From an uncultured Gemmatimonadales bacterium (lineage in GTDB: Bacteria > Gemmatimonadota > Gemmatimonadetes > Gemmatimonadales > GWC2-71-9): DNA of 64,000 nucleotides. Shown here in pieces: positions 7,207 through 64,000 of the stretch. The position numbers and the translations under genes are program-made. How positions within the stretch are numbered: the stretch's first letter is position 1; every line of letters begins with the position of its first letter. The notes below the pieces were generated by a model. That model worked only from the letters and a program-made list of their open reading frames with translations, did no database searches and was not told the origin of the DNA. The stretch lies in the NCBI GenBank assembly GCA_963695555.1, contig CAVOGR010000007.1, positions 795,216-859,215 of the forward strand. Direction: 5' to 3'.

Positions 7207-8450
7207 ACGCTGACCAAGCAGTCTCGGACCCCGTAGGAACGGCATCGCCTCCGGTTCAGTATCCGGTCGCGGAACTGGCCCAACGCCTCTTCGATGTGGT
7301 GATCGTCGGAGCGGGGCCGGCCGGTGTGACGGCAGCCATCCGACTCGCATCCGCCGGCCACCAGGTGGCCCTGGTGGACAAGCGCGTGTTTCCTCGAAGC
7401 AAGGCATGTGGCGATGGCTTGCTCGGTGACAGTCTCCGGATGCTGCGGCGGCTCGAGCTGTATGACCTCGTCAGGTCGCACGGACACCTGCTGGACGCGG
7501 TCAGGATCTTCAGCCCGTCGCAACACGCCACCGATATTCCCGGTGAGTTCATGACCATACGCCGGGACGTATTGGACTTCCTATTGGCGCAGGCCGCCGT
7601 GGAGCGAGGTGCCACCTTTGTCGCAGCCGAGGTCACGAACTTAGAAGAGCAACCCGATCGTGTCGTCGCCCGGTGCCGCAGCACCAGCGTTAGCATGGCT
7701 GGCAGACTAGCCGTCGTTGCGACCGGCGCGGACATCCGGCTCGTCCCGAGCCGCGCAAGGGCGAGGGGCGATGCACGCAGCGCCATGGCGCTGCGGTGCT
7801 ATGCGCGCTCGTCGATGTCGCTCGACCGGTTGATTGTCACATTCGATCGGTCCATTCTGCCGGGATACGGCTGGATCTTCCCGCTGGGCAACCAGGAGTT
7901 CAACCTCGGCTGCGGCGTATTTGATCGGGGTACGGGAAGTCCCAACCCGAACCTGCGCGACATGTTCCACACTCTCGTTGACCGTTTCCCTCCCGCACGG
8001 GAGTTGATCGCGCACGGGGCTCTTACTTCCCCGCTCAAGGGCGCCCCGCTCCGGTGCGGGCTCACGGGTGTACCCGCCTACGCGGGCGGGCGCATCGTGG
8101 TGGTGGGCGAAGCCACCGGCACCACGTTCCCGTTCACCGGCGAGGGCATCGGCAAGGCCATGGAGACGGGCGCACTCGCCGCCGATCACGTGAGCCAGGC
8201 GCTCACGGCGGGCTCGCTCGAGCCACTCTCCCACTTGCCGCACGTGCTCCAGACCACCCTCGAGCCCCGCTACCGTGGGTATCGTGTCGCCGAACGCTGG
8301 TTATCCCATGCCTGGATGAGCGATTTCTTGATCAAGCGGGCCGGCCGGAGCCCCTATCTGCAGCGCGCGGCCGCCGGGGTGTTAAATGAATCGATCGACC
8401 CCGAAGAGATCTTTTCATGGCGGGGCCTCGTGACATCGTTAGCCAATTAG
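7203..8450 (+). CDS. Geranylgeranyl reductase family FAD oxidoreductase
   Basis: GAGPAG, FPRSKACGDGL, PGYGWIFP, PFTGEGIGKAM; GTG start overlaps upstream TGA. Confidence 0.85.
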   Translation: MNADQAVSDPVGTASPPVQYPVAELAQRLFDVVIVGAGPAGVTAAIRLASAGHQVALVDKRVFPRSKACGDGLLGDSLRMLRRLELYDLVRSHGHLLDAVRIFSPSQHATDIPGEFMTIRRDVLDFLLAQAAVERGATFVAAEVTNLEEQPDRVVARCRSTSVSMAGRLAVVATGADIRLVPSRARARGDARSAMALRCYARSSMSLDRLIVTFDRSILPGYGWIFPLGNQEFNLGCGVFDRGTGSPNPNLRDMFHTLVDRFPPARELIAHGALTSPLKGAPLRCGLTGVPAYAGGRIVVVGEATGTTFPFTGEGIGKAMETGALAADHVSQALTAGSLEPLSHLPHVLQTTLEPRYRGYRVAERWLSHAWMSDFLIKRAGRSPYLQRAAAGVLNESIDPEEIFSWRGLVTSLAN

Positions 8451-8454
8451 CGCG

Positions 8455-9540
8455 ATGGCCGAGAACGGAGCCGGAACGGCGGCGAGCATCATGAGCCCCA
8501 ACGCAACCGGTCGCGGGCAAGGGGGTCGGGCGTCGTCGAGTGAAGGGCGTGCGTTCTGCGCCGCCATGCTGCCCAAGGTCTCTCGGACCTTTGCGCTCTG
8601 CATCCGGCTCTTGCCCCGATCGCTGTCCCACTCGGTCACGGTCGCGTACCTGCTCTGTCGTATCGCCGACACCATCGAAGATGCGACTGACCTGTCCGTG
8701 GCCGACAAGCAAGGACTCCTGCGGCACTTCGGTGGTTGCCTGGACGACAACGGCCCTGCCGCCGACTCGATTCGAACGGCCTTCCGAAGGCGGAGGAACG
8801 ACGAAGAGCGCTTGGCCGCCGACGCAGACATGATACTCGGCGAATTCTACGCGCTCTCGGCCCGCGAACGCGATGCTATACGGCCATGGGTGCAGGAGAT
8901 GTGCGCCGGAATGGCGGAGTTTGCCAGGGCGGGACGGCTGGTTGCCGGGCGTGAACTCGAAACGCTGGCCGATCTCCAGGCGCTGGACCGCTACTGTTAC
9001 TTCGTGGCAGGCACGGTGGGACATCTACTCACGGGGTTGTTCCGTCTCTCCGATTCCCGAGCCGATGCTGCGCGCTATGAGGCGCTCGACCGCCTCGCGG
9101 CGAGTTTCGGACTCGGACTCCAACTCACCAACATCATCAAGGACGTAGCCGACGATCACCGTCGAGGCTGGAGTTTCGTTCCCCGTGATTTGTGCCGCCA
9201 GGCAGGCGTGCCGCCGGAAAAGTTGTTCGATCCAGCATTCCGCACCGAGTCACTCCAAGTCATGGACGCGCTCATCGCCGAGGCGCGACGACATCTGGTC
9301 GATTCACTGCGCTATTGCACCATGCTGCCGCGGTACCAATATCGTATCCGGCTCTTCTGCCTGACCTCGTTCTACTTTGCCGTCCGGACGTTACGCCGCG
9401 CGGCATCCGACCAGCGCCTGCTGGAGCCCACTCACAAACTCAAGATCACCCGGGGCGAAGTGTACCGGACCGTGGCGGCGACGCACGTCGTCGCGCCCAG
9501 CAACTACCTCGTGCGTGCATATTATCGGCGCCTTGCATGA
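8455..9540 (+). CDS. Squalene/phytoene synthase family protein (squalene synthase-like)
   Basis: SRTFALCI, YLLCRIADTIED, YCYFVAGTVG, GLGLQLTNIIKDVADD. Confidence 0.85.
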   Translation: MAENGAGTAASIMSPNATGRGQGGRASSSEGRAFCAAMLPKVSRTFALCIRLLPRSLSHSVTVAYLLCRIADTIEDATDLSVADKQGLLRHFGGCLDDNGPAADSIRTAFRRRRNDEERLAADADMILGEFYALSARERDAIRPWVQEMCAGMAEFARAGRLVAGRELETLADLQALDRYCYFVAGTVGHLLTGLFRLSDSRADAARYEALDRLAASFGLGLQLTNIIKDVADDHRRGWSFVPRDLCRQAGVPPEKLFDPAFRTESLQVMDALIAEARRHLVDSLRYCTMLPRYQYRIRLFCLTSFYFAVRTLRRAASDQRLLEPTHKLKITRGEVYRTVAATHVVAPSNYLVRAYYRRLA

Positions 9541-9570
9541 CCACGACCTGCTCCGCGCAGCCCTAGCAGC

Positions 9571-11247
9571 ATGGTTCTTCCGCAGGTTCCAACACCTCCA
9601 CCCGGCTTCCGCGGGGTGTTTCGAACGGACCCGAGGGCCCGGGCGGCGTACGCCGAAGGCGCCGGCATCTATCGCATCATCCCCGCTGCCGTCGCGATCC
9701 CGGCCAACGACAAAGACCTCCGCCATCTGCTGACCTGGGCGGCGCGGTTGGGCATGCCGATCGTCCCTCGCGGAGCCGGCAGCGCCATGGGAGGCGGCAA
9801 TGTGGGCTCCGGAACGGTCATCGACCTCACCGGCTTCGGGGCCGACCGGCTGGAGGTGATGCCCGACCGGCGCATGGCCCTGACCGGCGCCGGTGTAGCC
9901 TATAGCGGCCTCAACGCCGCGGCCGCCCGGCATTCGCTCAGGCTTCCGCCGGACCCGTCGAGCGGACGCTGGGCCACCCTCGGTGGCATGGTCGCGACCA
10001 ACGCGGCCGGCGCTCGCTCGGTGCGCTTCGGCAGTGTGCGGGCATGGGTGCGGGGCGTCGAACTCATGACCGCCGACGGGTCGCACGGCTGGATCCGGCG
10101 CGGCGCGGCTGGCAAGGCGGAATCGGGGCTACCCGCCGTGGACCGATTCCACCAGCACGTCGCCCCAGCTATCCACGCGGCCGCACCCCTCGTTCGTCAA
10201 CGGTTTCCCCACACGCGGAAGAACTCGGCCGGATACGCGCTCGACGCGTACCTGGAGTCGGGCGACCTCGTCGAGCTCATCATCGGCTCGGAAGGCACCC
10301 TCGGCATTATCACCGGCATCGAGTGGCGGTTGGATGGAATTCCCGCATGTCGGGCCGGTGCCGGGATCGTACTCCACGATCTCGCGAGCTTGGCCGACAT
10401 CGTCCCGGCCATTCAGCAATACCAGCCCTCGGCGCTCGAACTGCTCGACCAGACCTTTCTCGATCTGGTGCGCTCGGGGTCCGAGCGCGGCACGGCCGCC
10501 GATTGGGTCCCGACGTCGGCAGCGGGGCTGCTCCTGGTCGAATTCGAGCGCGATACGCCGGCATCGCTCCGCGGCGTCTTGGGCGACGCGATACGCGCGG
10601 TGGATCACCTCGCAGCCGACGTGCGTACCGCCTTGGCCGAGGGCGAGACGGCTGAACTCTGGGCGTTACGCCATGCCGCGAGCCCTATTCTGGCTCGGCT
10701 GCCGGATCACCGACGCTCCCTTCAAGTAATCGAGGATGGGTGCGTGCCGGTGGCCGAACTTGGCAGGTACGTGAGTGCGGTGCGCCGCGCCGCAGCCGCT
10801 CGCGGACTGGAAGTGGTACTTTTCGGCCACGCCGGTGACGGCCACCTTCACGCGAATCTTCTGGTCGATGTGAGTCGTGAGGGGTGGGAAGGAGTGGTCG
10901 GCTCGTTGCTCGAAGAGGTGACCGCGGAGGTCATTCGGCTAGGTGGCACACCCGCGGGCGAACACGGCGCCGGTCGACTTCGCGCCGGATTTCTCGGTCA
11001 GCTCTACGGACCGGACATCCTGACCTTGTTCAGATCGGTCAAGCAGGCCTTCGATCCGGATGGGCTCTTGAACCCTGGCGTGCTCTTGCCGACATCGGCC
11101 GATGCGACGCCCATGAACCATCTCAAGATGGGCACACGAGCGGTCGCTCTCCCCGATGATATCGCCCAGGCCTTGCGCTCCATCGAACGGGAGGCAACGT
11201 ACCAACAGTTGCGGCTGGCCCTCGCGGACCGGAGTCCCACGCCATGA
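9571..11247 (+). CDS. FAD-binding oxidoreductase (GlcD/D-lactate dehydrogenase-like)
   Basis: [52 protein letters not shown]. Confidence 0.88.
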
Positions 11248-12038
11248 AGCAGTACCTCGATCTCTTGCGACATGTTCGCGATCACGGCCACTCTAAGAGC
11301 GACCGTACCGGAACCGGGACGTTGAGCATCTTCGGGTACCAGATGCGATTCGACCTGGCCCGGGGGTTCCCGTTGGTCACCACCAAACGGGTTCACTTCA
11401 AGTCCGTGGTGTATGAGCTCCTGTGGTTCCTCAGGGGTGATACCAACGTGCGGTATTTGCAGGAACATGGAATCCGAATCTGGAACGAGTGGGCCGATGC
11501 GGAAGGCAATCTGGGCCCGATCTACGGTCGGCAGTGGCGTTCCTGGCCGGCGCCCGATGGTAGGCATATCGACCAGCTCGGCCGCGTCATCGAGCAGATT
11601 CGACGGGATCCCGATTCCCGCCGTCACATGGTGTGCTCGTGGAACGTGGCGGAGCTTCCTGCCATGGCGCTCGCGCCGTGTCACGTCCTGTTTCAGTTCT
11701 ACGTGAGCGAAGGACGGCTGTCCTGTCAGCTGTATCAGCGGAGCGCCGATCTCTTTCTGGGCGTGCCATTCAACATTGCGTCCTATGCACTTCTCACCGC
11801 CATGGTGGCGCAGGTCACAGGCCTCGCTCCCGGCGAGTTCATCCATACGTTTGGGGATGCGCACGTTTATCGGAACCATCTTGCGGCCGTCGACCTGCAG
11901 CTGAGCCGCGAGCCACGCCGCCTCCCGACGCTCCGGCTGTCGCCGAACGTCGCGTCGATCGACGACTTCGCCTATGACGAGGTGACGCTCGAGGGGTACG
12001 AGCCGCACCCCCCGATCCGAGCGGAGGTGGCCGTATAA
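11244..12038 (+). CDS. thyA: Thymidylate synthase
   Basis: [40 protein letters not shown]. Confidence 0.97.
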
Positions 12039-12547
12039 TTCTGTCGCTGCTCGTCGCCATGGCCGAGAACGGCGTGATTGGAAAGAACAACGCCCTACCC
12101 TGGCATCTACCCAACGATCTCAAGCGCTTCAAGGCGCTGACGTCTGGCCACTCCATCGTGATGGGCCGGCGGACGTTCGACTCGATCGGTCGGGTGCTCC
12201 CGGACCGGCGCACAATCGTGATCACCCGCAACACGGATTTTCAGGCAGCCGGAGCCGAGGTGGCGCACACCCTCGACCGGGCATTGGAACTGACCGCAGG
12301 CGAGGACGAGGTCTTCGTGGTGGGCGGCGCCGAGCTCTACCGTGCGGCGTTGCCGCGCGCCGACCGAATCTACCTCACGATGGTGCATGCCGCTGTAGAG
12401 GGTGACGTCCGTTTTCCGGCATGGGAGCCCCCGGCGTGGCACCTGGTGGAGTTCGTCAGGTTCGCGCCGAACGATCGGCATGCGTATCCCTATAGCTTTC
12501 GCCGCTACGAGCGACTGAAACCTGCTGCTCCGGCTCGAGAGGGGTAG
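12035..12547 (+). CDS. folA: Dihydrofolate reductase (probable non-AUG start ATA at 12035; first ATG at 12059)
   Basis: (I)[54 protein letters not shown] at 12023-12028. Confidence 0.93.
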
Positions 12548-12720
12548 CGCACGGACGGCCCATCTTGCATCTCGGGACCGGGGTCATAAGACTTGAATCA
12601 GAATCATTGATCCAGAGGCGTTCGCAGGCGGAGCGAAGCGGTGTGAAGGACATGCCTGTCGAGCGTGCTGGCAACCGCCCGGTCGCTGCCGGGCGGTCGT
12701 TCTTTGAGTGTCCGGACCCG

Positions 12721-50967: not shown

Positions 50968-52739
50968 ATGCAACTCGATCGACTGGATTGGGCCGTGGTC
51001 GCCGTCTACGGCGTGGTGGCACTGGCGGTGGGCCTCATGTTCACCCGCCGGGCCGGACAGGGAGTTCAGGAGTTCTTCCTCTCGGGCCGGAAGCTCCCGT
51101 GGTGGCTGCTGGGCACGTCGATGGTGGCGACGACCTTCTCGACCGACACGCCGAATCTCGTCACCGACCTGGTCCGAAACGGCGGCGTGAGCCAGAACTG
51201 GCTCTGGTGGGCTTTCCTCATTACCGGCATGTTGACCGTCTTCATCTACGCCAAGCTCTGGCGCCGCTCGGGCGTGCTCACCGACATCGGCTTCTACGAG
51301 CTGCGCTACTCCGGCAAGCCGGCCGCCTTCCTGCGCGGGTTCCGGGCGCTCTACCTGGGCATCTTCTTCAACGTGATGATCATGGCCACCGTTACCCTGG
51401 CGGCCATCAAGATCGGGAACGTGCTGCTTGGGCGTCGACAAGGTCACGACGGTCGTGCTGGCCGGCGGGGTGACCGTCATCTACTCCGCCACCGCGGGCC
51501 TCTGGGGCGTGGTGGTGACCGACTTGTTGCTGTTCGCCATCGCCATGACCGGCTCGATCGCCGCGGCGTACTACGCCTTGAACCTGCCCGAGGTGGGCGG
51601 GTTGGCCGGTATGGTGCAGCATCCGGCGCTCGAGGGAAAGCTGAGCCTGCTACCCGATTTCTCGGACGGCACCACCGTGCTCGCCGTCCTTGATCGTCCC
51701 GATCGCGGTGCAGTGGTGGAGCACCTGGTATCCCGGCGCCGAGCCGGGGGGCGGCGGCTACATCGCCCAACGGATGCTGGCGGCACGGACCGAGCGCGAC
51801 TCGTTGCTGGGCACGCTCTGGTTCAACGTCGCCCATTACGCGCTCCGGCCCTGGCCCTGGGTGATCGTGGCGCTCTGCTCGCTCATCGTGTATCCCAGCC
51901 TCGACTCGATCATACTGCGGTTCCCGAACCTCGATCCGTCGATCGTGCGGCACGATCTGGCCTATCCCGCCATGCTGGTCTTCCTGCCGCACGGGCTCCT
52001 GGGGCTCGCGGTGGCGTCGCTCGCCGCGGCCTATATGTCCACCATCAGTACCCATCTCAACTGGGGCTCGTCCTACATCGTGGACGACTTCTACCGCCGC
52101 TTCATCGCCCCGAACGAGAGCGACAAGCACTACGTCATGGTCGGCCGGGTGTCGACGGTGCTGCTTATCGTGCTCGCCTCACTCGTGGCACTCGTGCTCC
52201 AGAACGCGCTCCAGGCGTTCCAGATCCTGCTCCAGGTGGGCGCGGGCACCGGCCTGATCTTCCTGTTGCGCTGGTTCTGGTGGCGGGTCAACGCGTGGAG
52301 CGAGATCACCGCGATCTCGGTCTCGTTCCTGGTGGCGGTGTACTTCCAGTTCGTGCACCAGGCCTTGGGCTTTCCGGCGCTCGACCCATCGCTGACCCTG
52401 GTGATCGGTGTGGCCATCACCACACTCACCTGGGTCGGCGTCACCTTCATGACGCCGGCCACCGACCGGGCGACCCTGCAGAGCTTCTACGACCTGATCC
52501 ACCCCATGGGCCGCGGATGGGATAACGCGGTCGAGACGGACCCGAGCGCGCAGACGGGAAGCCTGAGCGCCGGTCTCCTCTGCTGGTTTTTGGGATGCGT
52601 TGCAGTCTACTCGGCGCTATTCTGCACCGGGTACTTCCTTTATGGCAACCTGCTGGCCGCGGCCGTAGCGTTGGTGATGCTGGTCCTGGCCGCGGCATCG
52701 CTCATCAAGTTGTTCCCGCGGGTCGGCTTGATAAGCTAA
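50968..52739 (+). CDS. Sodium:solute symporter, two apparent frameshifts (~51430, ~51690)
   Basis: SMVATTFSTDTP; GLWGVVVTD; GGGYIAQRMLAA, AAYMSTISTHLNWG spread over three consecutive frames. Confidence 0.85.
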
Positions 52740-52755
52740 GCGCCGGTACGGGGGG

Positions 52756-53973
52756 CTACAGGGTGGTGCTGGAGGCGCCGCCGGACGGCACGGCGATGAA
52801 CAGCTCGCGGGCCGAGGGCGGCCCGTCGAGCCGGGACGCGTAGTAGCCCTCCCCCAGCGCCGAGAGGATGTCGGCGGCGCGGTCTTTCGCCGTGAGCGCG
52901 ACCATGCACCCGCCGAAGCCCGCGCCGGTGAGCCGCGCACCGTAGGCACCGGCGGACAGGCAGAGTTCCACGAGTTGATCCAGCTCCGCGCAGCTCACTT
53001 CGTAGTCATCCCGCAGACTCTCGTGCGACCCTATCATCAACCTGCCGAACTGCGCCGGGTCGTTTCGGTGCATGGCGTCGATCGCCTGCGCCAGCCGGTC
53101 TGCCTCGGTGACCACGTGCCGAAACCGCTCGAGCAACGGAGCGTCGAGCGCGCGGTCGGCGACGGCCAGCAGCTCTTCCACCGACCGGCCGTTCATGAGC
53201 GCCGCATAGTTTGTCCGTCGCTCACCGTCCAGTGCTTCGCTCACCCGATCGAGCGCGGCGCGGCATTCTTCGGTGCGTTGATTGTATGCCGCCTTGGCCG
53301 CACCCGATTTCTCCGCCCGGATCAGGGTCGACCCCACGACGAAGGTCCAGCCGTCGGGGATGGGCACGTGCTGGAGCCTGAGTGGGGCGAAGTCGATTCG
53401 GCAGGCGTGGCCCGGCTTGGCGCCGACGCAGATGGCCTGGTCCATCCCGCCGCTCTTGGTGCCGACGTACACTTCGGCGCGGGCAAACTCATCCATGAGT
53501 TGCATCCGGTCGACCGTGGTGCCGTTGTGCGAGAGCAACGTGAGGCCGCTCGACACCACCAGGGCGGACGACGAGCTCAGGCCGGTCGCGACCGGCACCG
53601 TGCTCTCGAGCACCCCGTCGAACCCGTGGCGGACGCCGTGGTCGCGGTAGAGCGCCTGGGCCGCCGCCTTCACGTAGTTGCCCCAATGCCCCGGAGCGGA
53701 ATGGGGGATGTCATCGGCCAGCTCGAACTCGACCGCATCGAATTGGGCGTCGCGGTTCACCAGATGCACCCGCGAGTCCGGCCGCGGCCGCGACAAAATC
53801 GAAATGGCGTATTGAATGGCGATGGGAAAGACCGGCAGACCGTTATAGTCGGTGTGCTCGCCGATCAGGTTGACCCGGCCCGGCGCGCGGATCAGGTGTT
53901 TCGGGTCGGCACCGCCGAAGCTTTTGCGGAAGGTGTCGGTGAGCCCCGTGAGCTGATCGGCCTGGTCGGTCAT
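52756..53973 (-). CDS. galK: Galactokinase (GHMP kinase)
   Basis: APGRVNLIGEHTDYN, GLSSSSAL, GGMDQ, GARLTGAGFGG. Confidence 0.9.
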   Translation of the reverse strand: MTDQADQLTGLTDTFRKSFGGADPKHLIRAPGRVNLIGEHTDYNGLPVFPIAIQYAISILSRPRPDSRVHLVNRDAQFDAVEFELADDIPHSAPGHWGNYVKAAAQALYRDHGVRHGFDGVLESTVPVATGLSSSSALVVSSGLTLLSHNGTTVDRMQLMDEFARAEVYVGTKSGGMDQAICVGAKPGHACRIDFAPLRLQHVPIPDGWTFVVGSTLIRAEKSGAAKAAYNQRTEECRAALDRVSEALDGERRTNYAALMNGRSVEELLAVADRALDAPLLERFRHVVTEADRLAQAIDAMHRNDPAQFGRLMIGSHESLRDDYEVSCAELDQLVELCLSAGAYGARLTGAGFGGCMVALTAKDRAADILSALGEGYYASRLDGPPSARELFIAVPSGGASSTTL

Positions 53974-54175
53974 GGCGTCCTATGATCCGGGTGTGGTGAC
54001 GCAGCGGGACAGATGATCCTCCCACGCGTGGGTGGCGATCCGCCGGAGGCAGCGCGGGCACCGCATGCAGCACGGGGCCACGTGCACGATGCCCGGCTTC
54101 TCATGACACGGGCAGCGACAGTCCTTGCTGGTGGGATCGAACGGTGGGATGGTCAACGGTTACCCTTTACCTGCT

Positions 54176-54650
54176 TCAGGGACTATCGCTGTTCCCGATG
54201 TCCACGGCCACCCGCCACACGCCGGTCGAGTCGCGCCGCCAGATGGTAACGTAATGCCCCGAGGCGACGGTCGAGTCGCCGCCCTCCGAGGTCTTCACGC
54301 GGCTGACCCAGCGTCCGAGGGTGTATCCCATGTCGCCGCCAGCACCCACCGCCGCGTCGGTCGGGGTCCATTCGAGGCTCGGCCCGTCGGGGGTGAGGTA
54401 GGGGCGTCATCGACTCCCGGATGGCTTGTTGTCCGTCAATGCGGTCGCTCGAGGTATACATCACCCCATCGGGCAGGAAGTAGGCGGCCCACCCATCGGC
54501 CCCGCGCTCGGCGGTCTCGTAGGCGAACAGGCTGTCGGCGCGGAATAGGGATAGCCGATCGGCCTCGGTCGACCGGGGCTCCTCGCGGCCGACGCACGCG
54601 CCGAGCACGGCCAGGATGGCTGGCAGGGCAAGCCGTCCGATGCGAATCAT
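54176..54650 (-). CDS. DUF4440/NTF2-like lipoprotein, apparent frameshift near 54400
   Basis: LGAC lipobox; the shifted frame continues LEWTP..GDMGYTLG..GHYVTIWRR..WRVAVDIG. Confidence 0.7.
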
Positions 54651-54664
54651 GGAAGTCTCCGGGT

Positions 54665-55039
54665 TCAGCGTATGCCGGTGTCGAAGTCGAGTGTCACCTG
54701 AAGGGTGGTGCGCGGCTCCACCCGGACGGCGCGGGTCTGCGAGGTCGGCGCCATGAGCGGGGCGCTCGCATCGGGTACGATGGTGTAGTCGCCGGCGGGA
54801 AGTGCGATGGTGAAGCGTCCGGCCGCGTCGCTTCGGAATTGTGCCACCTCCCGCCCGCCGCTTCGTACGTGGAACAAGGCCGCAAACGGCGCGTCGCAGG
54901 GCACGCCGACCGTGCAGACCGGCTGGATGGGGCCTCGCAGCACCGTGCCGTCGATACCCGATCCGTCTTCCTCCAAGGCCGTGCCGCCGCAGGCGAGTGA
55001 AGCCACGAGCAGGGTGGCCAGGAGCTTGGGTCCGGACAT
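54665..55039 (-). CDS. Lipoprotein with carboxypeptidase-regulatory-like domain
   Basis: SLAC lipobox; GPIQPVC...SDAAGRFTIALPAGDY...DTGIR. Confidence 0.7.
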   Translation of the reverse strand: MSGPKLLATLLVASLACGGTALEEDGSGIDGTVLRGPIQPVCTVGVPCDAPFAALFHVRSGGREVAQFRSDAAGRFTIALPAGDYTIVPDASAPLMAPTSQTRAVRVEPRTTLQVTLDFDTGIR

Positions 55040-55161
55040 AAGACCTCCGACTACGTCTTGCTATAGGGTGGCTTGGAACGACCTGCGGACCTGGGTTCGG
55101 GCCGCGCCGACAGCCATGGAGACGAGTACGAGCGATTCCACCCCCACAATGGGCTCTGTCG

Positions 55162-55959
55162 TCATCGGTTGAGCCCTGCCACCAGCCGGCGCACGGACCG
55201 CCGCGGCAGGAGCCGCACTGCCCAGGTGCCGAACTTATTCGCCATACCGGGGACCACCAGGGCCTGGCCGCGCCGCCAGCCGCGGTAGCCCGCTTCCGCT
55301 ACGGCGCGGGCCGACATCGACGAGGTGCGGCGCAGGAGCTTCGACCCTTCGGTGCCGGCGCGGGCGGCGAACTCCGTCGCGGTAGGCCCGGGCGAGAGGC
55401 ACGACACCTTGAGGTTACTGTCCGCCACCTCCACGGCCAGCGCCTCGGTGAACGACTGCACGTAGGCCTTGGTGGCGTAGTACACCGCCATGAAGGGACC
55501 CGGCTGGAAGGCCGCGGTGGACGCCACGTTCAGGATACCACCCCGGTTCCGGGCCAGCATGCCGGGCAAAAACAGCCTGGTGAGCACGGTCAGGGCGGTG
55601 ACGTTGAGCTGGATCATGTCCAGTTGGCGTTGGAACTCGAGCTCCGCGAACGGGCCGCGGGCGCCGAAGCCGGCGTTGTTCACCAGCACGTCGACGTCGA
55701 TTCCGTCGGCCAGCATCATCTCGTGGATGTCGCGCGCGGCCGACGAGCGGACCAGGTCGCGGGCCAGGACCCGCACCGTAACGCCGTGGCGGGCGCGGAG
55801 TTCCTCGGCCAGGGCCAGAAGTACGTCGTTCCGCCGGGCCACGAGCACCAGGGTGTACCCGTCGGCGGCAAACAGCCGGGCCAGCTCGAGCCCGATGCCC
55901 GACGATGCGCCGGTGATGAGTGCGGTTTCCGGGGCAGCCGTCTGCTCAGTTTCCGTCAT
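55162..55959 (-). CDS. SDR family oxidoreductase
   Basis: TGASSGIG, NNAGFG, YYATK. Confidence 0.92.
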   Translation of the reverse strand: MTETEQTAAPETALITGASSGIGLELARLFAADGYTLVLVARRNDVLLALAEELRARHGVTVRVLARDLVRSSAARDIHEMMLADGIDVDVLVNNAGFGARGPFAELEFQRQLDMIQLNVTALTVLTRLFLPGMLARNRGGILNVASTAAFQPGPFMAVYYATKAYVQSFTEALAVEVADSNLKVSCLSPGPTATEFAARAGTEGSKLLRRTSSMSARAVAEAGYRGWRRGQALVVPGMANKFGTWAVRLLPRRSVRRLVAGLNR

Positions 55960-56047
55960 CGCCTTTCCTCGCGTCGCTTGCCACCTCGGTCTCTAGGCTG
56001 CAGCTTGGGGCCCTGGTGCACGAGTCCAACCCACATCGGAGGCTGTT

Positions 56048-56488
56048 ATGGCCCAGAAGGAACCGCAGAACTTTGCCAACCATGCCCGCTTGGTGCCGGG
56101 CTATCACTTCGTCGCTTTCGGTCTGTTGGCGATCAACCTCGTCTGGTCCATCCGCAACATCATCAAGGTACCGAGTTGGGACACCGCGGTCATGCTCGGC
56201 CTCGCGGTCGCGCTGGTGCTCCTCTTCTTCTATGCCCGACTCTTTGCGCTTGCGGCTCAGGATCGCCTGATACGATTGGAGGAGCGACTCCGGATGGCGA
56301 CGCTCTTGCCGGCGGACTTGAAGCCTCGCATCGGCGATTTTACCACGGCCCAGCTCATCGCGCTTCGTTTCGCGTCGGATGCCGAGCTTCCGGACCTCGC
56401 TCGCCGGGTGTTGGACGAGGGCTTGACCGACCGGAAGGCGATCAAGCGCCTGATCAAGGACTGGCGGGCCGACTACTGCCGGGTGTAG
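56048..56488 (+). CDS. Conserved hypothetical membrane protein (DUF6526-like)
   Basis: QNFANH, QDRLIRLEE, QLIALRFASD.E, WRAD..RV. Confidence 0.75.
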   Translation: MAQKEPQNFANHARLVPGYHFVAFGLLAINLVWSIRNIIKVPSWDTAVMLGLAVALVLLFFYARLFALAAQDRLIRLEERLRMATLLPADLKPRIGDFTTAQLIALRFASDAELPDLARRVLDEGLTDRKAIKRLIKDWRADYCRV

Positions 56489-56526
56489 GGTCGAGCTGGC
56501 CGATGGCGGCTTCCAATATATATAGA

Positions 56527-56566
56527 GGCACGGCAGCCCTCAGTGGGCTGCCGTGCCGTTCTTCTT
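56527..56566 (+). terminator. Intrinsic terminator (possibly bidirectional)
   Basis: Perfect 13-bp stem GGCACGGCAGCCC/GGGCTGCCGTGCC followed by GTTCTTCTT; between convergent genes. Confidence 0.75.
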
Positions 56567-56603
56567 CCGGATGTGACGCGCGGAAGGGCAGTTATCCTCC
56601 GGC

Positions 56604-57083
56604 TCAGCTTCCCGGCTCGACTGGAGTTTCTTCTAGCGCCTTCTTTTCTTGGATGAGCCGGTCCGCCAGCTGTTGGTCGGTGAGGCCGGCCTTGGCGCGG
56701 ATCTGCTTGATCACGTCGACCATGTGGGCTTCGATGGTTTCCATTTCCTTCATGGCTGCGTCGCTGTCGCGGAAGCCGCGGGTGGCGTCGATGGCGAGGC
56801 CGTTGAGCCGGCGGACGTCGGCGATCAGGAGATCGACCGTACCGCGCAGGTTCCGGTGCCGGCGGCGCTCTTCGACCGGTTCGATTCGCACCGACTCGAG
56901 CACCATCTCCACCACCCTGAGGCGGCCTGCCGCCCAGATGATCGCGGCCAGGAACAGGAGTCCAGCGCCGACCCGGGTTGCCGGATCGTCCACGTAGTAG
57001 AGGGTCAGCCCCAGGCCGATCACGGCCACGGCGAGGCCGACTGAGAACAGAATGGTCTGGAAAGTCCAGCGGAAGGATGCCAT
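56604..57083 (-). CDS. Hypothetical membrane protein
   Basis: Two N-terminal TM segments then a helical region; coding-like codons. Confidence 0.65.
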   Translation of the reverse strand: MASFRWTFQTILFSVGLAVAVIGLGLTLYYVDDPATRVGAGLLFLAAIIWAAGRLRVVEMVLESVRIEPVEERRRHRNLRGTVDLLIADVRRLNGLAIDATRGFRDSDAAMKEMETIEAHMVDVIKQIRAKAGLTDQQLADRLIQEKKALEETPVEPGS

Positions 57084-57358
57084 GGACGTCCCCGCCTGCT
57101 TGGGTCGGTAAGGAACAGCCCCGTACGAAGGTAAGAATCCGGGCCGAAAGCCGCCAGCGAGCGGCCCCGGGGGCCGCAGACCTGGCCGCAGCGGATAATG
57201 GGGTGGCAAGACTGAGGCCACCGCCTCGACCAGGCCAATACCGCTATCGGGCGGGCTCCGACCGGGCGGTGTTGCAGATCGCTCCGGTTGGATTCCGATG
57301 CCCCGAGCGGTGATTTGGTGCCGCATGAAGGCGGGGGACCGGCATATACCTCTTGCGT

Positions 57359-58323
57359 ATGACCATGGAGGCTGTGCTCGAGCGGGCGCGGCGGCTCATG
57401 CGGCTCCGGCATTACAGCCACCGCACCGAGGCGACCTATGTGGGCTGGATGGTCCGTTATCTCCGGTTCCACCGGTATCGCAATCCTATCGAGCTTGGCG
57501 GGGCCGGCATTGCGGCCTTTCTCAGCCACCTGGCCGAGCGGGGGCGGGTGAGCGCGTCGACGCAGAACCAGGCGTTGAGCGCCCTGCTCTTTCTCTATCG
57601 CGACGTGCTGGGCGTTCCGCCGGGGCACATCGGTGGGATCGTCCGGGCCAAGCGTCCCAAGAAGCTGCCGGTGGTGCTCACCAAGGCGGAGGTGCGGCTG
57701 GTGTTGGCGGAGCTGTCTGGTGCCAAGCGTTTGATTGCGGCGCTGCTTGTATGGCAGTGGGCTTCGACTGATGGAGTGTTTGCGGCTTCGGGTGAAGGAC
57801 ATCGACTTCGATTCCAACCGGATCATCGTGCGCGAGGCCAAGGGCGGGCGTGACCGGGTGACCATGCTGCCGGCGCGTCTCAAGCCGGCTCCTTCGTGCC
57901 CATCTCGAGCGGGTTCGAGCCGTTCACGCGCGGGACAAGGCCGAGGGGGCGGGTGGGGTGGAGTTGCCGGCGGCGCTCGGGCGGAAGTATCCGCGGGCCG
58001 GGGCCGAGTGGGGGTGGCAGTGGGTGTTTCCTGCGGCGCGCAAGTATTGGGATCGCACGACTGGCGAGCGGCGGCGCCATCATCTCGACCCGTCGGCGGT
58101 GCAGCGGAGTGTGACGGTGGCGGTCCGGGCGAGCGGGATAGCGAAGCGGGCCAGCTGTCACACGCTCAGGCACTCGTTCGCAACCCATCTCCTGGAGGAC
58201 GGGTACGACATTCGGACCATTCAGGAGCTATTGGGCCATAAGGACGTGAGCACGACGATGATCTACACCCATGTATTGAATCGAGGCGGCCGCGGGGTGC
58301 GGAGCCCGATGGACGTGATATGA
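57359..58323 (+). CDS. intI: Integron integrase, two apparent +1 frameshifts (~57748, ~57891)
   Basis: [42 protein letters not shown], IntI-specific insert [41 protein letters not shown]. Confidence 0.95.
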
Positions 58324-58483
58324 AGAGCTACCAAACTAGGTGGCGGTTTCTGCAGTCCATCTTGCCACCGTCCATCCCCTAGGGTTTCCCCTAGTCGGGT
58401 GGGGTTGTGAATGTGCCGAGGCGGTGGACCAGGTTAGGTGGGCGAGAGATTGTGGCGGAACTTGCCGGGACGTGGCATTTTTG

Positions 58484-58505
58484 TGCAGTCCATATCTCGT
58501 TAGAC
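58484..58505 (+). other. Putative attI recombination site (core GTTAGAC 58499-58505)
   Basis: GTTRRRY core not preceded by an attC arm; 6/7 complementary to cassette 1's own inverse core CTCTAAC. Confidence 0.55.
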
Positions 58506-58548
58506 GGACGGCCGTTAAGCTGACTAGATCAGCCACTAGAATCGAGAA

Positions 58549-58734
58549 ATGAACGTGATAACAGGGTTTCAATGCTGCTTCTGTGGCGAGCCAATCACGA
58601 AGCGGGAAGACGATCCCGTGACGATGGTGATTCCGCTCAGGGGTGGTGGGACGCAAGACCTCCGTGTCACGCGGAATGTCTCGAAGCGACACTTGCACCC
58701 TTCCTTTCCTACGGCATTCGGGGGCAGCCTCTAA
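58549..58734 (+). CDS. Cassette 1: small Cys-rich protein (probable Zn-binding)
   Basis: CCFC motif; the stop codon is the TAA of attC1; an overlapping frame reads CHAECL. Confidence 0.55.
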   Translation: MNVITGFQCCFCGEPITKREDDPVTMVIPLRGGGTQDLRVTRNVSKRHLHPSFPTAFGGSL

Positions 58735-58835
58735 CCGCCGCGTGCAGTGGGCGGGCCTTGCTGGTTTGAAGGAAGTCGTTGATTTGTGGGCAGGCGGGCT
58801 GAGATGGCCCGCAACTGACACGGGATTCGTTAGAC
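58729..58835 (+). repeat. attC site 1 (107 bp)
   Basis: CTCTAAC...imperfect inverted arms...GTTAGAC. Confidence 0.92.
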
Positions 58836-58843
58836 AGCAACGA

Positions 58844-59317
58844 ATGAGATTCTTTCTACCAAGCTGTATCGTAGCAGTAATGCCCTTTCTCGGGGCCGCA
58901 TGTGGGCCAGACTTGCGCCACGATGAGGCAATCGCGGAGAAGATCGCCCAAGTCGTCAGTGGTGGTGACTCCACGATAGTCGATCTAGCAGAGATTGCCG
59001 ACTTCCCCTGGGACCGAGCATTCATCTTTGGTCCGTACACCGCTACAAGCATGATCGACAGCTCCCTTGGGTTCCAATGCAACTGCGGGTCGCTGATTCA
59101 CAGCTATGATGGTGTTGCGCTTCTTGTCTTTGTGGAGTCTGGGACAGTGAAGTTCTACACAGACGTTTGGAGTAGCCAGGCCAACATCCAGCAGTTATCC
59201 GTTCCCGAGGGATACAGGCCCAGCGAGGCCTCGTTCTGCGTGAGGACAGAGGGGGTGCTGACGGACGGCTCTCTTAACCGGGTGCTTTACCACATAGGTT
59301 CGGACAAGTGCCGATAG
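58844..59317 (+). CDS. Cassette 2: hypothetical lipoprotein (157 aa)
   Basis: FLGAAC lipobox; FPWDRAFIFGPY; ORF fills the cassette; visibly lower GC. Confidence 0.8.
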   Translation: MRFFLPSCIVAVMPFLGAACGPDLRHDEAIAEKIAQVVSGGDSTIVDLAEIADFPWDRAFIFGPYTATSMIDSSLGFQCNCGSLIHSYDGVALLVFVESGTVKFYTDVWSSQANIQQLSVPEGYRPSEASFCVRTEGVLTDGSLNRVLYHIGSDKCR

Positions 59318-59327
59318 GGAAGTTGCT

Positions 59328-59434
59328 GTCTAACCACCGCGTGCAGTGGCCGGGCCTTGCCGGGGCTGAAGGAAGTCGTTGATTAGTGCAGGGGCGGGCG
59401 AGACGGCCCGCCACTGACGCGGGATTCGTTAGGC
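59328..59434 (+). repeat. attC site 2 (107 bp)
   Basis: GTCTAAC...GTTAGGC. Confidence 0.93.
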
Positions 59435-59460
59435 GCACGGCTCCATGTGGAGATCGAATC

Positions 59461-59871
59461 ATGCAGCTCCTGAGGCTGCGGACCTGGTCCGGCAAAGGGG
59501 TTGCGGTACTTTGGCTCGTGGTCGCCATCTACATGGCCATCCCGATTGTCCTCGCTGCCGTATCTCAAGAACCGCAGTCTCCCGACCCTGCCTGGCTTGA
59601 TGATTCGGCGCTCACACCCCAGGAGCGTGCAATTCGGGACTCACTAGTGGATTCTCTCAAGGCTCTCCTGCTCGTGGCTGCTGACAATCCTGAAGCTCAG
59701 AAGATGATTGGCGGGATCGTGGACGGTATAGGGCGGGCCGTTGACAAGACTGTCGTCGCATTCCTTGTACTATACTTCGGTCCGCTCACGGCGGCGGGAG
59801 CACTAACAGCCCTTTGGGTTCGAAGTCGGCCCCGGGATAGACGCGCAGTTCAAACAGAGGCCGGCGCCTAA
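59461..59871 (+). CDS. Cassette 3: hypothetical membrane protein (136 aa)
   Basis: GGAG SD, two TM segments, stop is the TAA of attC3. Confidence 0.75.
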   Translation: MQLLRLRTWSGKGVAVLWLVVAIYMAIPIVLAAVSQEPQSPDPAWLDDSALTPQERAIRDSLVDSLKALLLVAADNPEAQKMIGGIVDGIGRAVDKTVVAFLVLYFGPLTAAGALTALWVRSRPRDRRAVQTEAGA

Positions 59872-59970
59872 CCACCGCGTGCAGTGGCCGGGCCGTGCGG
59901 GTCTAAAGGAAGTCGTTGATTTGCTCACGGTGGGCGAGCTGGCCCGCCACTGACGCGGGATCCGTTAGGC
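59866..59970 (+). repeat. attC site 3 (105 bp)
   Basis: GCCTAAC...GTTAGGC. Confidence 0.92.
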
Positions 59971-60246
59971 AGACCGACGAGGCTCCTGCGCTCAGACGGG
60001 TTGCACAACTCCGCACTGGTTCGCCGTTCCCACCTGGTTCTCACGAGGCGATGAGGCTGTTCGTCAAGCCGCCGCGCGCGACGTTCCCGTGGACAACGGG
60101 TGCCTCGCTCCGGGTCGACGCCCGTGGGTGAGCGTACTCGGATGTCACGTCTCGCTGCAGCGCTTCTGCGCCGACTCGGATCTCGGCGGTCGGCCTCTGT
60201 GGAGCGAGCCATGAGCGCGCTGACGTAGCGATCGGCACTGCGGCTG

Positions 60247-60350
60247 CCCTAACCACCGTGTGCAGTGGGCGGGCCTTGCTGGGTTCAAAGGAAGTCGTTG
60301 AATTGTGAGCGGGCGGGCTAGAGCCCGCCACTGACACGGATTCGTTAGTA
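60247..60350 (+). repeat. attC site 4 (104 bp)
   Basis: CCCTAAC...GTTAGTA; same arms and loop as the other copies. Confidence 0.88.
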
Positions 60351-60918
60351 GCGGACAGGTCTCAAGTCTCTCGACTCGAGCACTTAACCGAGCGCACCAG
60401 TCGTTGCATGATCCGCTAGTCTGCGACATCTCGGCATCGACCGGCGTCTTCAACGGCGAGGATAGCCCACTCGCGGCTGAACCAGCCCGAGAGCCGTGGC
60501 GTTGACGGCTCCCTACTCGAGCAATGGACTGCGGGCGCTCGACGAACTCGGAGCGGAACCGACGACGTGCTCGCGGGATCCCGCGAGCAGGACAGCTTCG
60601 GTCAACGACAGTAGTGCACTTGGTCGGAACCTCAAGGCCGGCTGGAAGATCGACGTTCGCGATCCTGGTATCACCAGCGGTTCTGAGGTGGATCCGGCAA
60701 CCCGAGGCGCTGGCGGCACCATCTCCGGGATTGCTCGATGGCGCGGCTCGCAGGACCGCCGATCCAGACGACCACACGGACACTTGCGCCGACGTTCGGC
60801 ATGACCGGCAGGCGCGAACGATATTGCAGCTGAGTTCCGTCGCCGCGACGGCGCCAGTCGCCAATCTGAATGCGAGTCACCGTCGCCGGGGAAAAGGCGC
60901 TGCGGTAACCGGCTAGCG

Positions 60919-61025
60919 CTCTAACAACCGCGTGCAGTGGCCGGGCCTTGCTGGTTTCAAAGGAAGTCGTTGATTAGTGAGAGGGCGGGCGAGACGGCCC
61001 GCCACTGACGCGGGATTCGTTAGGC
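60919..61025 (+). repeat. attC site 5 (107 bp)
   Basis: CTCTAAC...GTTAGGC. Confidence 0.92.
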
Positions 61026-61468
61026 GGCATGCGGGCGAACATCCAGAGCTGGCACTCGTCAGTAGAGCGATCGACGAGTGCGCGCTCACCGGGCCTACGC
61101 AGCTTCCTCAGCGATGCGCAAGACCATCGTTGCGTCGCGTCGGCCCGACGATGCGTGCCCGAGTCGTCTCTAGACCGGCATGCATTGGCTCGTCGGGCTC
61201 GACGGCGACCATCGCTTCCTTCGGGCACGAGGCCGCTCGCGACGCTGCGTCCAAGCGAGACCGGGAGTCGCTCACGAACTATCGCGGAGCTGCGATCGGC
61301 GTCACTGCTGGGGAGTCGCCAGATCAGGCCGAGTGCCGAGGCTCGCGGTGGCAGCGACGTCGTCTGACAGGGGACTCGAGTAGCGTCATCGTTCATCGGC
61401 GTCCGAGACATCGAGGTGCAGTTCATTCGACGAGCAGCGCCATCTGGACAGTGCGAGGACATCGAGCC

Positions 61469-61575
61469 GCCTAACCACCGCGTGCAGTGGCCGGGCCTTG
61501 CCGGGTTCAAAGGAAGTCATTGATTTGTGAGAGGGCGGGCGAGATGGCCCGCCACTGACGCGGGATTCGTTAGGC
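61469..61575 (+). repeat. attC site 6 (107 bp)
   Basis: GCCTAAC...GTTAGGC. Confidence 0.93.
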
Positions 61576-62093
61576 GGCTCGATCTAGGTTCCAGCCCAAT
61601 TCCACTGCTGGAGGCCTCGTGCACCGTGTCAGCAGTCTCCTTCACCAATGGCAGATGTCGCTGCTGTCTGACGCCAACCTGTACCGGACGCCTACCCACG
61701 TTGTCGCCTGGTAAGCGCTCGAACCCGGGCGCTCGCGACAAGGCCAAGCCACGAGCGAGGCTCGCTCATTCCTCACGAGGACCATAGCCACGGTTTAAGG
61801 CTCGGGGGCGTGCGTCTTGCAGGTCGGTTATCGAGCTGACAGTCCGAGTGATCGCTCGCTCGAAGATCAGCATCGGGGAGGTCAGTGCGTTCAGGAGCTC
61901 TACGGGCTCCGCGACGCCGGATCGGCAGCGACTCGTACACGTACAGGCCCGATTGACTTACTGCGTGAATGGTCCAGAAGCTGGGACGTCTGGGAACGCA
62001 AGACGAGATTGGCATCGCGGGCGCGCGAACGGCAAATGGACCGCGGACATCGGGAACCAATCACAGGCACGCTCGGTGAATCGCCAAGGAGCC

Positions 62094-62200
62094 GTCTAAC
62101 CACCGCGTGCAGTGGCCGGGCCTTGCTGGTTTCAACGGAAGTCGTTGATTTGTGAGTGGGCGGGCTTGCTGGCCCGCCACTGACGCGGGATTCGTTAGGC
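62094..62200 (+). repeat. attC site 7 (107 bp)
   Basis: GTCTAAC...GTTAGGC. Confidence 0.93.
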
Positions 62201-62391
62201 AGTCTAGGCCTTCACGTCTTCGCAGCTCCGTTCCAGTTCCAACTCCTCAACGGACTATGTGGTTGTTCGTCTCTGTCGGTCGGCTCCTTGGGGCCAGCGG
62301 GTCCGCTCCGGGTTCGCGCCGGTGGGTTAGGGTTTTCCCTAGTGCTCCGAGCAGTCCCGGAGCCGACCGGGCCGAGGTCGTGCGGCCGGGG

Positions 62392-62498
62392 CCCTAACGC
62401 CGTGTGCAGCTGACGGGCGGGCGCTTGTGTTTTGAAGGAAGTCGTTGAATTGTGTGAGCGGCGGGCATAGAGCCCGCAGCTACACGGATTCGTTAGGC
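62392..62498 (+). repeat. attC site 8 (107 bp, variant arms)
   Basis: CCCTAAC...GTTAGGC; arms CAGCTG/CAGCT replace CAGTGG/CCACTG. Confidence 0.85.
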
Positions 62499-62683
62499 GG
62501 CCAAGGCCTTGGTTGGTTTAGGCAGCTGCGGGGTCATGCCTGGATTGCGGTCAAGTGGGGACGGGAACCATGGGTTGGCCGCATGACCAACCACGGACGG
62601 GGCTTGGTGCACGCGAACTGGGGACCCCACCGCTCTCCCGAAACAATACACAGGGACGTAGATGGGCTGGGGAAGCTTTTAGC

Positions 62684-62801
62684 CTCCAACCACCGCGTGC
62701 AGGCTGGCCGGGCCTTGCTGGTTCTTGAGAGGAAGGTCGGGTTGATTAATGGAATGGGCGGCCCGAGATGTGCCCGCCACTGACCAGGGATTTCGTTAGA
62801 C
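62684..62801 (+). repeat. attC site 9 (118 bp, degenerate or error-rich)
   Basis: CTCCAAC...GTTAGAC; several small insertions relative to consensus. Confidence 0.8.
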
Positions 62802-63595
62802 GGCGGGGAATTTGGATTGTTCTGGGTAGTGGATGGCACTTGCATGCACTTGGAGGTTTCGGTGAACCGCATGGGGGCGAATCTCGGGCGTCTCAGCTCT
62901 TCTATGCAGCGTTATCGGCTGTGGGGACTCAGATGTCGGACCGCCTCATTTCAGTTGGATACACCACCGGAGGTAGTGAGCCAGCGAGTTCACATTTGAC
63001 ACGTTGGCCCGCACTGCGCACATTCGTGCTGCAAGCTCCAAGACCCCCGATGGCCCGGTGGAACGTTGACTGCAAATTCGGGTTTCGAGGGCACTGGGGC
63101 TAATTCCGGTCAGCAATTGTGGAGTCGTTTGCCGATCTAAGATGGCGAGGCACTGTTACCCAATGCCTACTCACGCAGAGTGATACCACAGTTGAGCATT
63201 GGACCGCAGCGAGATTTCGACTGCCCAGTGGTTCGATCATCCTCCTGAGCCTTCTCTGAGCATCCCAGCGACCGCTCTGATCGCCGGTTACCCCCAGCCA
63301 CGTTTTAACGTTACTGCACAGGATGATTGGGGAATTGACGTATACTGGTTGAGCATAGCACCGGGGAACGTATCTCGAGTTGCACGCTGAACTGGACGCG
63401 CATTACGACGCGCAAATCGCAGAAGCGCATCGCCCTGGCCTTGGTTCCATTCGATTGACGTTGTATCTCCCCGGGCCAGGGGGTTCACTTGCATTGTGGG
63501 TTCGCGGTGAGAGATGATTTTGGTCACAATGGTAGGAGTAGGCGGCGAGCTCACAGTCGGCCCCTGACGTGTATCGGGCATGTTTGGCTGCCGCC

Positions 63596-63702
63596 GTCTA
63601 ACCACCGCGTGCAGTGGCCGGGCCTTGCTGGCACTCAAGGAAGTCGTTGATTAGTGCACAGGCGGGCGAGACGGCCCGCCACTGACGCGGGATTCGTTAG
63701 AC
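63596..63702 (+). repeat. attC site 10 (107 bp)
   Basis: GTCTAAC...GTTAGAC. Confidence 0.93.
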
Positions 63703-63714
63703 AGCGCCAAAGAA

Positions 63715-64000
63715 ATGGCAATGGAACCCGACGCTCCTCGCCTGCGAGCCTACCTGCGACGTGCTGTGAACAGGCCAGTGCTCATCATGCCGCGGCAGGA
63801 TTGGAACCAACTCGGCCTCCAGCCAGGCGGACAATTGGTGCCCGTGGACCTGGCTACAACGCCGATGTCGAAGGTCAGTAGCGATGCATCCATTCTCGGA
63901 GCCGTTGCACAGCAGTTCTCAAATGCCACTGCAGAGGTCATGATCTACAGGGATGACCCCAACGATGCGCCCAAGCGCGTGAATGCAGATCCATACCTTG
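63715..64000 (+). CDS. Cassette 11: hypothetical protein (3'-truncated by window edge)
   Basis: ATG 12 nt after the attC10 core; frame MAMEPDAPRLRAYLRRAVNRPVLIMPRQDW... stays open to the window end. Confidence 0.6.
   Translation, partial: MAMEPDAPRLRAYLRRAVNRPVLIMPRQDWNQLGLQPGGQLVPVDLATTPMSKVSSDASILGAVAQQFSNATAEVMIYRDDPNDAPKRVNADPYL

Follow-up and report, generated by a model that had tools for sequence, protein, structure and literature searches.

A reverse chromosomal integron in an uncultured Gemmatimonadales bacterium and integrase-free copies of its attI platform

The window analyzed here comprises the final 64 kb of contig C7 from the genome of an uncultured Gemmatimonadales bacterium (G000; 3.57 Mb in 14 contigs, 87% complete) and carries the integron integrase gene intI followed by an array of gene cassettes, inside which the contig ends. 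Judging from sequence comparisons, this locus is a reverse chromosomal integron, in which intI and the cassettes point in the same direction and the attachment site attI lies downstream of intI, and its single integrase (IntI) probably also serves, in trans, other copies of the attI platform, which head integrase-free arrays elsewhere in the genome. The integron itself is of the published reverse or inverted type, which is the usual state in this lineage and thus ordinary for its clade; the arrangement with multiple platforms is the less ordinary part. The features of the intI-attI region are as follows.

57359-58323, + strand: intI, integron integrase, distributed over three frames with breaks near 57749 and 57890 and matching TIGR02249 in pieces
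58324-58499, + strand: attI platform, consisting of a 176-bp spacer with the attI core at its end; homologs that lack intI exist elsewhere; 91% alike in the congeneric genome G002 and 83% in the congeneric genome G004
58351-58360, + strand: 10-bp direct repeat of the start of the attI core, kept in G002 and with one change in G004
58379-58394, strand not applicable: 16-bp palindrome of the TAGGG-N4-CCCTA family (28 copies in the genome)
58463-58477, + strand: 5-bp hairpin followed by a T-run, a weak terminator-like match just before attI
58484-58503, + strand: attI core with the crossover G58499|T58500; G002 and G004 match to here and then continue with other cassettes

The three pieces of intI (57359-57748, 57750-57887, and 57892-58320, with the stop at 58323) match positions 1-125, 126-170, and 173-314 of TIGR02249, respectively. 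Each piece alone scores below the cut-off of this family, whereas the whole and unbroken ortholog in G004 scores above it (437.6 bits). The C-terminal piece aligns with VchIntIA (PDB 2a3v, residues 190-318) and contains the integron-specific insertion and the catalytic H-x-x-R...H...Y motifs that characterize IntI-type tyrosine recombinases; the species genome that matches it best, at 98% identity, carries the label Gemmatimonadales. No other IntI was found in G000, where three further tyrosine-recombinase loci match over a short catalytic stretch only, and hence no second intI that might serve the array was seen in this genome. A single IntI is also present in G002 (98% complete), and an IntI piece in the related genome G001 sits at a different locus.

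The position of attI was fixed by comparing the three congeners. G002 aligns with window positions 51878-58509 (6.6 kb, 90% alike) and departs from the window just past G58499|TTAG, and G004 likewise matches the window to the crossover and then diverges. The common sequence up to G58499 and the different cassettes behind it therefore mark a G|TT attI site adjoining intI, as well as a turnover of cassettes at this site. The crossover lies 176 bp past the intI stop, which bears out the original prediction that intI is on the + strand, ends about 175 bp before the first cassette, and has attI at its 3' end. Since G002 and G004 share the flank of this locus, the assumption of a sedentary chromosomal platform also holds. 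The repeat at 58351-58360 is, to judge by its sequence, possibly an accessory IntI-binding site. An Rfam scan of positions 56000-64000 returned no matches at E<=1.

The frameshifts in intI are likely consensus errors of the assembly, because the G004 ortholog is unbroken, contigs from three public sequencing runs (X2, X3, and X11) do not contain the extra bases, and recA (G000:C4:129914-130884) is split over two frames in the same assembly. The public contigs are ~93-97% like the window and stem from relatives, another strain than G000. X11 record 14 has one base fewer at both 57749 and 57890, X2 record 18 shows two gaps across the span of both breaks, and X3 record 27 begins at 57747 with a loose end that lacks the extra base. 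A membrane transporter-like gene (identified by eye; window 50968-52739) is also split over two frames and, like the break in recA, is consistent with an error-prone assembly. Alternatively, intI could be a genuine pseudogene in this species as well as in G002, with an array that is frozen or served by another integrase. The two frameshifts in the window and three extra bases in the G002 gene, one of them at the same place, would fit this explanation, and in one survey almost one third of the intI genes were reported to be pseudogenes (PMC2426708). It is nevertheless very unlikely in view of the short-read contigs of close relatives, the similarly broken recA, and the arrays of G000 and G002, which differ fully from each other. 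Even less can be said for an assembly chimera at 58.3-58.5 kb, the misassembly that had been considered as a possible refutation of the layout: although errors are frequent in this assembly and its contig stops within the array, the same junction is found in G002 and G004 and is bridged by public contigs (X2 record 19 covers 57901-58503 in one contig and X11 record 15 covers 58317-58503; the X2 and X11 contigs both end at 58503), so that a misassembly is excluded.

Behind attI, the window contains ten complete cassettes and the beginning of an eleventh.

58500-58829, + strand: cassette 1, 330 bp; open reading frame (ORF) of 61 amino acids at 58549-58734 with its stop in TAAC; attC 58730-58835
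58830-59428, + strand: cassette 2, 599 bp; ORF of 157 amino acids at 58844-59317 with a lipoprotein-like N-terminus (by eye); attC 59329-59434
59429-59964, + strand: cassette 3, 536 bp; ORF of 136 amino acids at 59461-59871 with hydrophobic stretches and its stop in TAAC; attC 59867-59970
59965-62194, + strand: cassettes 4-7 (380, 675, 550, and 625 bp); no clean ORF, few repeated bases
62195-62492, + strand: cassette 8, 298 bp; multicopy and gene-less, with its own attC subtype at 62393-62498 and a palindrome at 62328-62341
62493-63696, + strand: cassettes 9-10 (303 and 901 bp); cassette 9 garbled together with its attC, no long ORF in cassette 10
63697-64000, + strand: cassette 11, cut by the contig end; homolog in the integrase-free tRNA-Pro array of G002

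The ten attC sites preceding the contig end (starts at 58730, 59329, 59867, 60248, 60920, 61470, 62095, 62393, 62685, and 63597) are ~103-106 bp long and as a group show the hallmarks of attC, namely R boxes in inverted orientation, an extrahelical base, and a hairpin in the bottom strand. A home-made detector, which reads the arm with the extra base as the orientation of the site, called eight of them, placing the extra base in the left arm (+) each time, and made no calls in window positions 1-57000. When the bottom strands were folded and compared with mononucleotide shuffles, nine of the ten sites formed a long attC hairpin (z-scores from -1.8 to -4.5), while the garbled ninth site did not (+0.7). 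Based on the left-arm extra base, the divergence of G002 and G004 at attI, and the gene-less cassette body that keeps its right attC, we conclude that the cassettes are + oriented; matching cassette ends are symmetric and were dropped as an orientation test. This agrees with the orientation originally proposed, including the extra bases in the left arm, but the gene stops, originally placed in the left TAAC, lie there in two of the three clean ORFs, as the stop of cassette 2 is ~12 bp earlier. Similarly, the ten sites do form one family, but "near-identical" was too strong a description: on average, pairs among all ten are 79% identical (51-93%) and pairs among the eight main-type sites 86% (78-93%), with one site belonging to a separate subtype and one being garbled. 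The family is restricted to the genus and thus host-specific, as had been claimed. The repeated-base content of cassettes 4-7 ranked low among 3000 genomic windows (percentiles 0.2, 2.3, 0.0, and 8.4), whereas cassette 9 showed an excess, and the bodies of cassettes 4-7 are by this measure likely a garbled consensus. Because the consensus is probably poor there, missing ORFs in cassettes 4-6 and 9 cannot be interpreted. Searches of Pfam and NCBIfam with the ORFs of cassettes 1, 2, 3, and 11 matched none of the four. Cassette 11 and its homolog in the G002 array are 85% alike over 282 aligned bases, with 23 gaps.

A search of G000 with an attC profile yielded 45 rows, 43 of which had E<1e-4. 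Ten of these family matches lie in the window, ten on contig C10, and 17 on contig C8, in addition to three decayed sites on C14 and three single ones. Several of the arrays and platforms outside the intI locus of G000 and G004 are listed below.

G000:C10:31811-36937 and C8:39200-53009: array without an integrase, located behind tRNA-Pro and probably continuous over both contigs
G000:C2:289147-289985: one-cassette satellite, comprising a degenerate attI platform (palindrome present twice in tandem), a single ORF cassette, and a single attC
L176 (G004:C417) 7906-12600: tRNA-Arg(CCT) islet with attI and about five cassettes of mixed attC types, bounded at its far side by a second copy of the 3' part of the tRNA

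The C10 array begins at an attI core (C10:31972) with 18 bases identical to the window attI, 243 bp behind tRNA-Pro. A platform profile matched C10:31811-31993, which was part of its training set, and C2:289147-289310, which was outside the training set (E 7e-7). The spacer of the tRNA-Pro platform is loosely homologous to that of the window but aligns poorly and lacks the palindrome. The platform is conserved at the tRNA-Pro locus of G002, which is 88.6% alike over 1.5 kb to the crossover; the core there has drifted, another cassette stands first, and the array has 17 family attC. As the far flank of this G002 array matches C8 of G000, C8 likely continues C10, resulting in ~27 family attC in one array. 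Two cassettes of the G002 array, both with toxin-antitoxin-like gene pairs (by eye), match C8 at 99.5% and 96.7%. C10 and C8, with an assembly gap between them, each hold at least two attC without a nearby intI and hence qualify as clusters of attC sites lacking an integrase (CALIN). No tyrosine recombinase was found on C10, C8, C14, or C2:270-310 kb, and no intI remnant near the satellite sites. A 3' duplicate of tRNA-Pro closing the tRNA-Pro array was not found; the distal end of this array contains attC of other types and large cassettes. A short purine-rich repeat behind tRNA-Pro (G000:C10:31750-31795) has dozens of look-alikes in genomes of the genus.

In G004, platforms occur behind tRNA-Asn and tRNA-Arg. 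The tRNA-Arg islet (~4.6 kb) contains cassettes and no integrase was seen in it; another tRNA-bounded islet follows. At the tRNA-Asn locus of G000 (C7:384290-386695, minus strand), the tRNA gene and two duplicates of its 3' part are followed by a clipped attC, a single cassette, and half a gene-less cassette; this is a remnant where G004 has a full satellite array. The three decayed attC on C14 (G000:C14:4050-7150) lie among intact-looking genes and are likely old, fixed cassettes. At its tRNA-Pro locus, G004 contains no attI within the 229 bases that precede the contig end, and the same locus in G001 and G003 gave no platform match. Farther away, G032 from another family contains a 76% copy of its own attI spacer that follows a metabolic gene and reaches the end of its contig (L182, G032:C8, 1440-1662), with no intI or tRNA in the preceding 1.4 kb. 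In G034, G027, G025, and G020, the search showed a single platform copy each. G026, G039, and G023 were not matched by the platform queries, and G028 only over 22 bases in one place. A literature search for orphan or duplicated chromosomal attI, judged by titles, retrieved no fitting title.

Cassette 8 represents a gene-less family of ~297 bp with eight near-full and two partial copies in G000, at least five copies in G002, and at least four in G004. In 17 of 18 copies, the subtype-B attC directly adjoins the right side of the gene-less body (in one of them it is cut by a contig end), and the 18th copy is a truncated remnant. With the right attC being constant and the left neighbour varying among copies, the cassette therefore consists of the body and the attC to its right. 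Used as a query, cassette 8 and its attC matched all four congeners, compared to one weak 38-base match among 36 other relatives. The gene-less cassette fills the first four positions in G002 and is the first cassette at three of the eight attI sites of the genus, a sample too small to judge enrichment. Its copies keep no common reading frame, and a structured RNA found no support, as a 12-copy consensus fold produced a long hairpin with a covariation term of only -0.29 and double changes in four of 64 pairs. The TAGGG-N4-CCCTA palindrome is common to the gene-less cassette and the attI platform. Its 28 copies in G000 compare with 0-1 copies when the length of the spacer is varied and 0-7 copies for each of ten controls with rearranged arms, and it is likely a protein-binding site. 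A LexA box was rejected, as no perfect copy is located upstream of lexA (C5:150234). Outside the arrays, the palindrome (genomic copies are found, for example, at C7:243977, C7:577902, and C1:716228) often precedes long ORFs by 40-270 bp, some of which resemble regulators or kinases (by eye). We found no paper on this palindrome. By analogy with Vibrio and Treponema, the gene-less cassette may plausibly be a regulated promoter cassette.

One IntI was found in the 87%-complete G000 genome alongside several platforms, and IntI would thus likely act in trans. In the proposed mechanism, intI would be intact in living cells, and IntI would, as expected from integron biochemistry, excise cassettes as circles via the folded bottom strand of attC and insert these circles at G|TT of attI. 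Cassettes would pass between the intI-linked and the satellite arrays, and a promoter within the 176-bp platform would drive the array, which would not depend on the intI transcript. Since the platform of a reverse integron lies wholly outside intI, it could be copied as a portable module of <200 bp. As a more tentative extension, we propose a distributed integron, in which one IntI would serve several live docking sites, some of them on integrase-free, tRNA-targeting islets, and one cassette pool, with attI copied as such a module and the multicopy gene-less cassette bringing the operator-like palindrome of the platform into the arrays. Several observations weigh against the main interpretation, a reverse integron whose IntI also acts in trans. 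G000 is incomplete, and a second IntI could be missing; the extra base near 57749, being also present in G002, could be a real shared lesion instead of a shared consensus error; and the join of C8 and C10 relies on synteny with G002 only. Moreover, the intI locus is present in two versions in G004, which may mix strains, so its three attI need not share a cell, a second platform copy was detected in only one of the five other relatives whose spacer query matched, and no match to the sigma-70 consensus, which may not be that of the host, was found in positions 57100-58700.

If the tRNA-linked arrays were instead leftovers of integrons that lost intI, they would change by cassette loss, by attC x attC or homologous recombination, and not by insertion at attI. 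Loss of intI and rearrangement are among the listed origins of CALIN (PMC4889954), and the drifted attI cores in the G002 tRNA-Pro copy and at C2 as well as the tRNA-Pro platform without the palindrome would be in line with such decay. However, besides the missing intI remnants, the core of the G000 tRNA-Pro site is identical over 18 bases despite its poorly aligning spacer, which suggests selection on this attI site; the front cassettes differ between G000 and G002; and gene-less cassettes stand in tandem directly at a satellite attI of G004. We thus consider leftovers an unlikely explanation and favor satellite sites used by IntI in trans. Somewhat less unlikely, but still doubtful, is the idea, going back to the original suggestion that intI transcription may read into the cassettes, that co-orientation serves to transcribe the front cassettes from the intI promoter and so couples them to the induction of the integrase. 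Only the weak 5-bp hairpin separates the intI stop from attI (three terminator-like hairpins were found in 1.6 kb, compared to 0.9 +/- 1.1 in shuffles), and a contig from an RNA library spans intI-attI, although DNA may be present in the library and the contig shows no single transcript. In contrast, the same platform heads arrays without intI, a BrnT/BrnA gene pair ending in half an attC lies between the intI stop and the platform in G004 (L015, G004:C42, 714-1360), and the reverse integron of Treponema is described to have its own measured cassette promoter, Pc (PMC6557892). Hence, read-through from intI into the cassettes is possible but not needed, because platforms without intI exist and the BrnT/BrnA pair intervenes in G004. 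Contigs from X3 and X11 contain a joint similar to that between BrnT/BrnA and the platform in G004. Read depth over attC was high in RNA runs; it adds up many copies and was left out of this assessment.

The frequency of the reverse layout was assessed in 40 relatives, with flanks of <=1.5 kb around intI. IntI matches at E<=1e-40 occurred in 24 of the 40 genomes. Among the 29 loci fetched, 27 contained the C-terminal half of IntI, and of these 13 (from 11 genomes) were reverse, none was canonical, and 14 remained uncalled; all 13 callable Gemmatimonadales loci were thus reverse. The 80 best loci from species genomes comprised 26 reverse, three canonical, one ambiguous, and 50 uncalled loci, and the record of the cultured Gemmatirosa kalamazoonensis has six + attC behind its intI (reverse). 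In a tree of 108 C-terminal segments (~140 residues; kin not independent; Treponema, Chlorobium, and Blastopirellula references not included), the window IntI grouped with G002 and G004 (support 0.99) within a clade of 82 tips (0.85) that contained 42 of the 43 reverse tips and none of the four canonical tips. These data suggest that Gemmatimonadales and the nearest integrases have the reverse layout by default and not as an oddity. It has been published for Treponema, Chlorobium, and Blastopirellula (PMC6557892), the inverted-integrase integrons being described as a paraphyletic group (PMC4889954), and Gemmatimonadota are among the listed carriers of integrons (PMC8618304). The rarity originally ascribed to the co-oriented layout was therefore overstated. 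The layout is already known, and no new mechanism is required.

The same crossover in three congeners gives the exact attI for an uncultured lineage and makes the activity of the satellite sites directly testable. If these sites are live, some arrays scored as CALIN leftovers would be working insertion sites, and the integron would be a genome-wide network and not one locus.

Vibrio superintegrons consist of one array of 100-200 attC, the Vibrio cholerae repeats (VCR). The integron described here resembles them, as characterized in PMC8618304, in its fixed chromosomal locus, one dominant attC family, and the presence of toxin-antitoxin and gene-less cassettes, but differs in its reverse layout, its 43 family attC spread over several loci, and an attC identity of 79-86%. 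With the reverse integrons of Treponema denticola, Chlorobium phaeobacteroides, and Blastopirellula marina it shares, according to the descriptions in PMC6557892 and PMC4889954, the common direction of intI and cassettes and the attI past the intI 3' end, and Treponema-type integrons are also reported to contain ORF-less cassettes, sometimes in the first position. In contrast to these, the present system has a Gemmatimonadales host, a genus-restricted attC of ~103-106 bp, and platform copies without intI. The gene-less promoter cassettes reported from Vibrionaceae (10.1101/2023.11.21.568050) and Treponema (PMC6557892) are likewise short, ORF-less, and located in chromosomal arrays, whereas the putative promoter cassette found here is one multicopy family with its own attC subtype and a palindrome common with the platform. 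Finally, CALIN (PMC4889954) and the Xanthomonas CALINs at conserved loci (10.1101/2025.06.18.660453) are also attC arrays without a neighbouring integrase, and both sources describe CALINs as mobilisable in trans. CALIN are defined regardless of attI, whereas the integrase-free arrays of this genus begin with a copy of the host attI platform, and three of these platforms lie directly behind tRNA genes, one of them within an islet that terminates in a duplicated tRNA 3' part.

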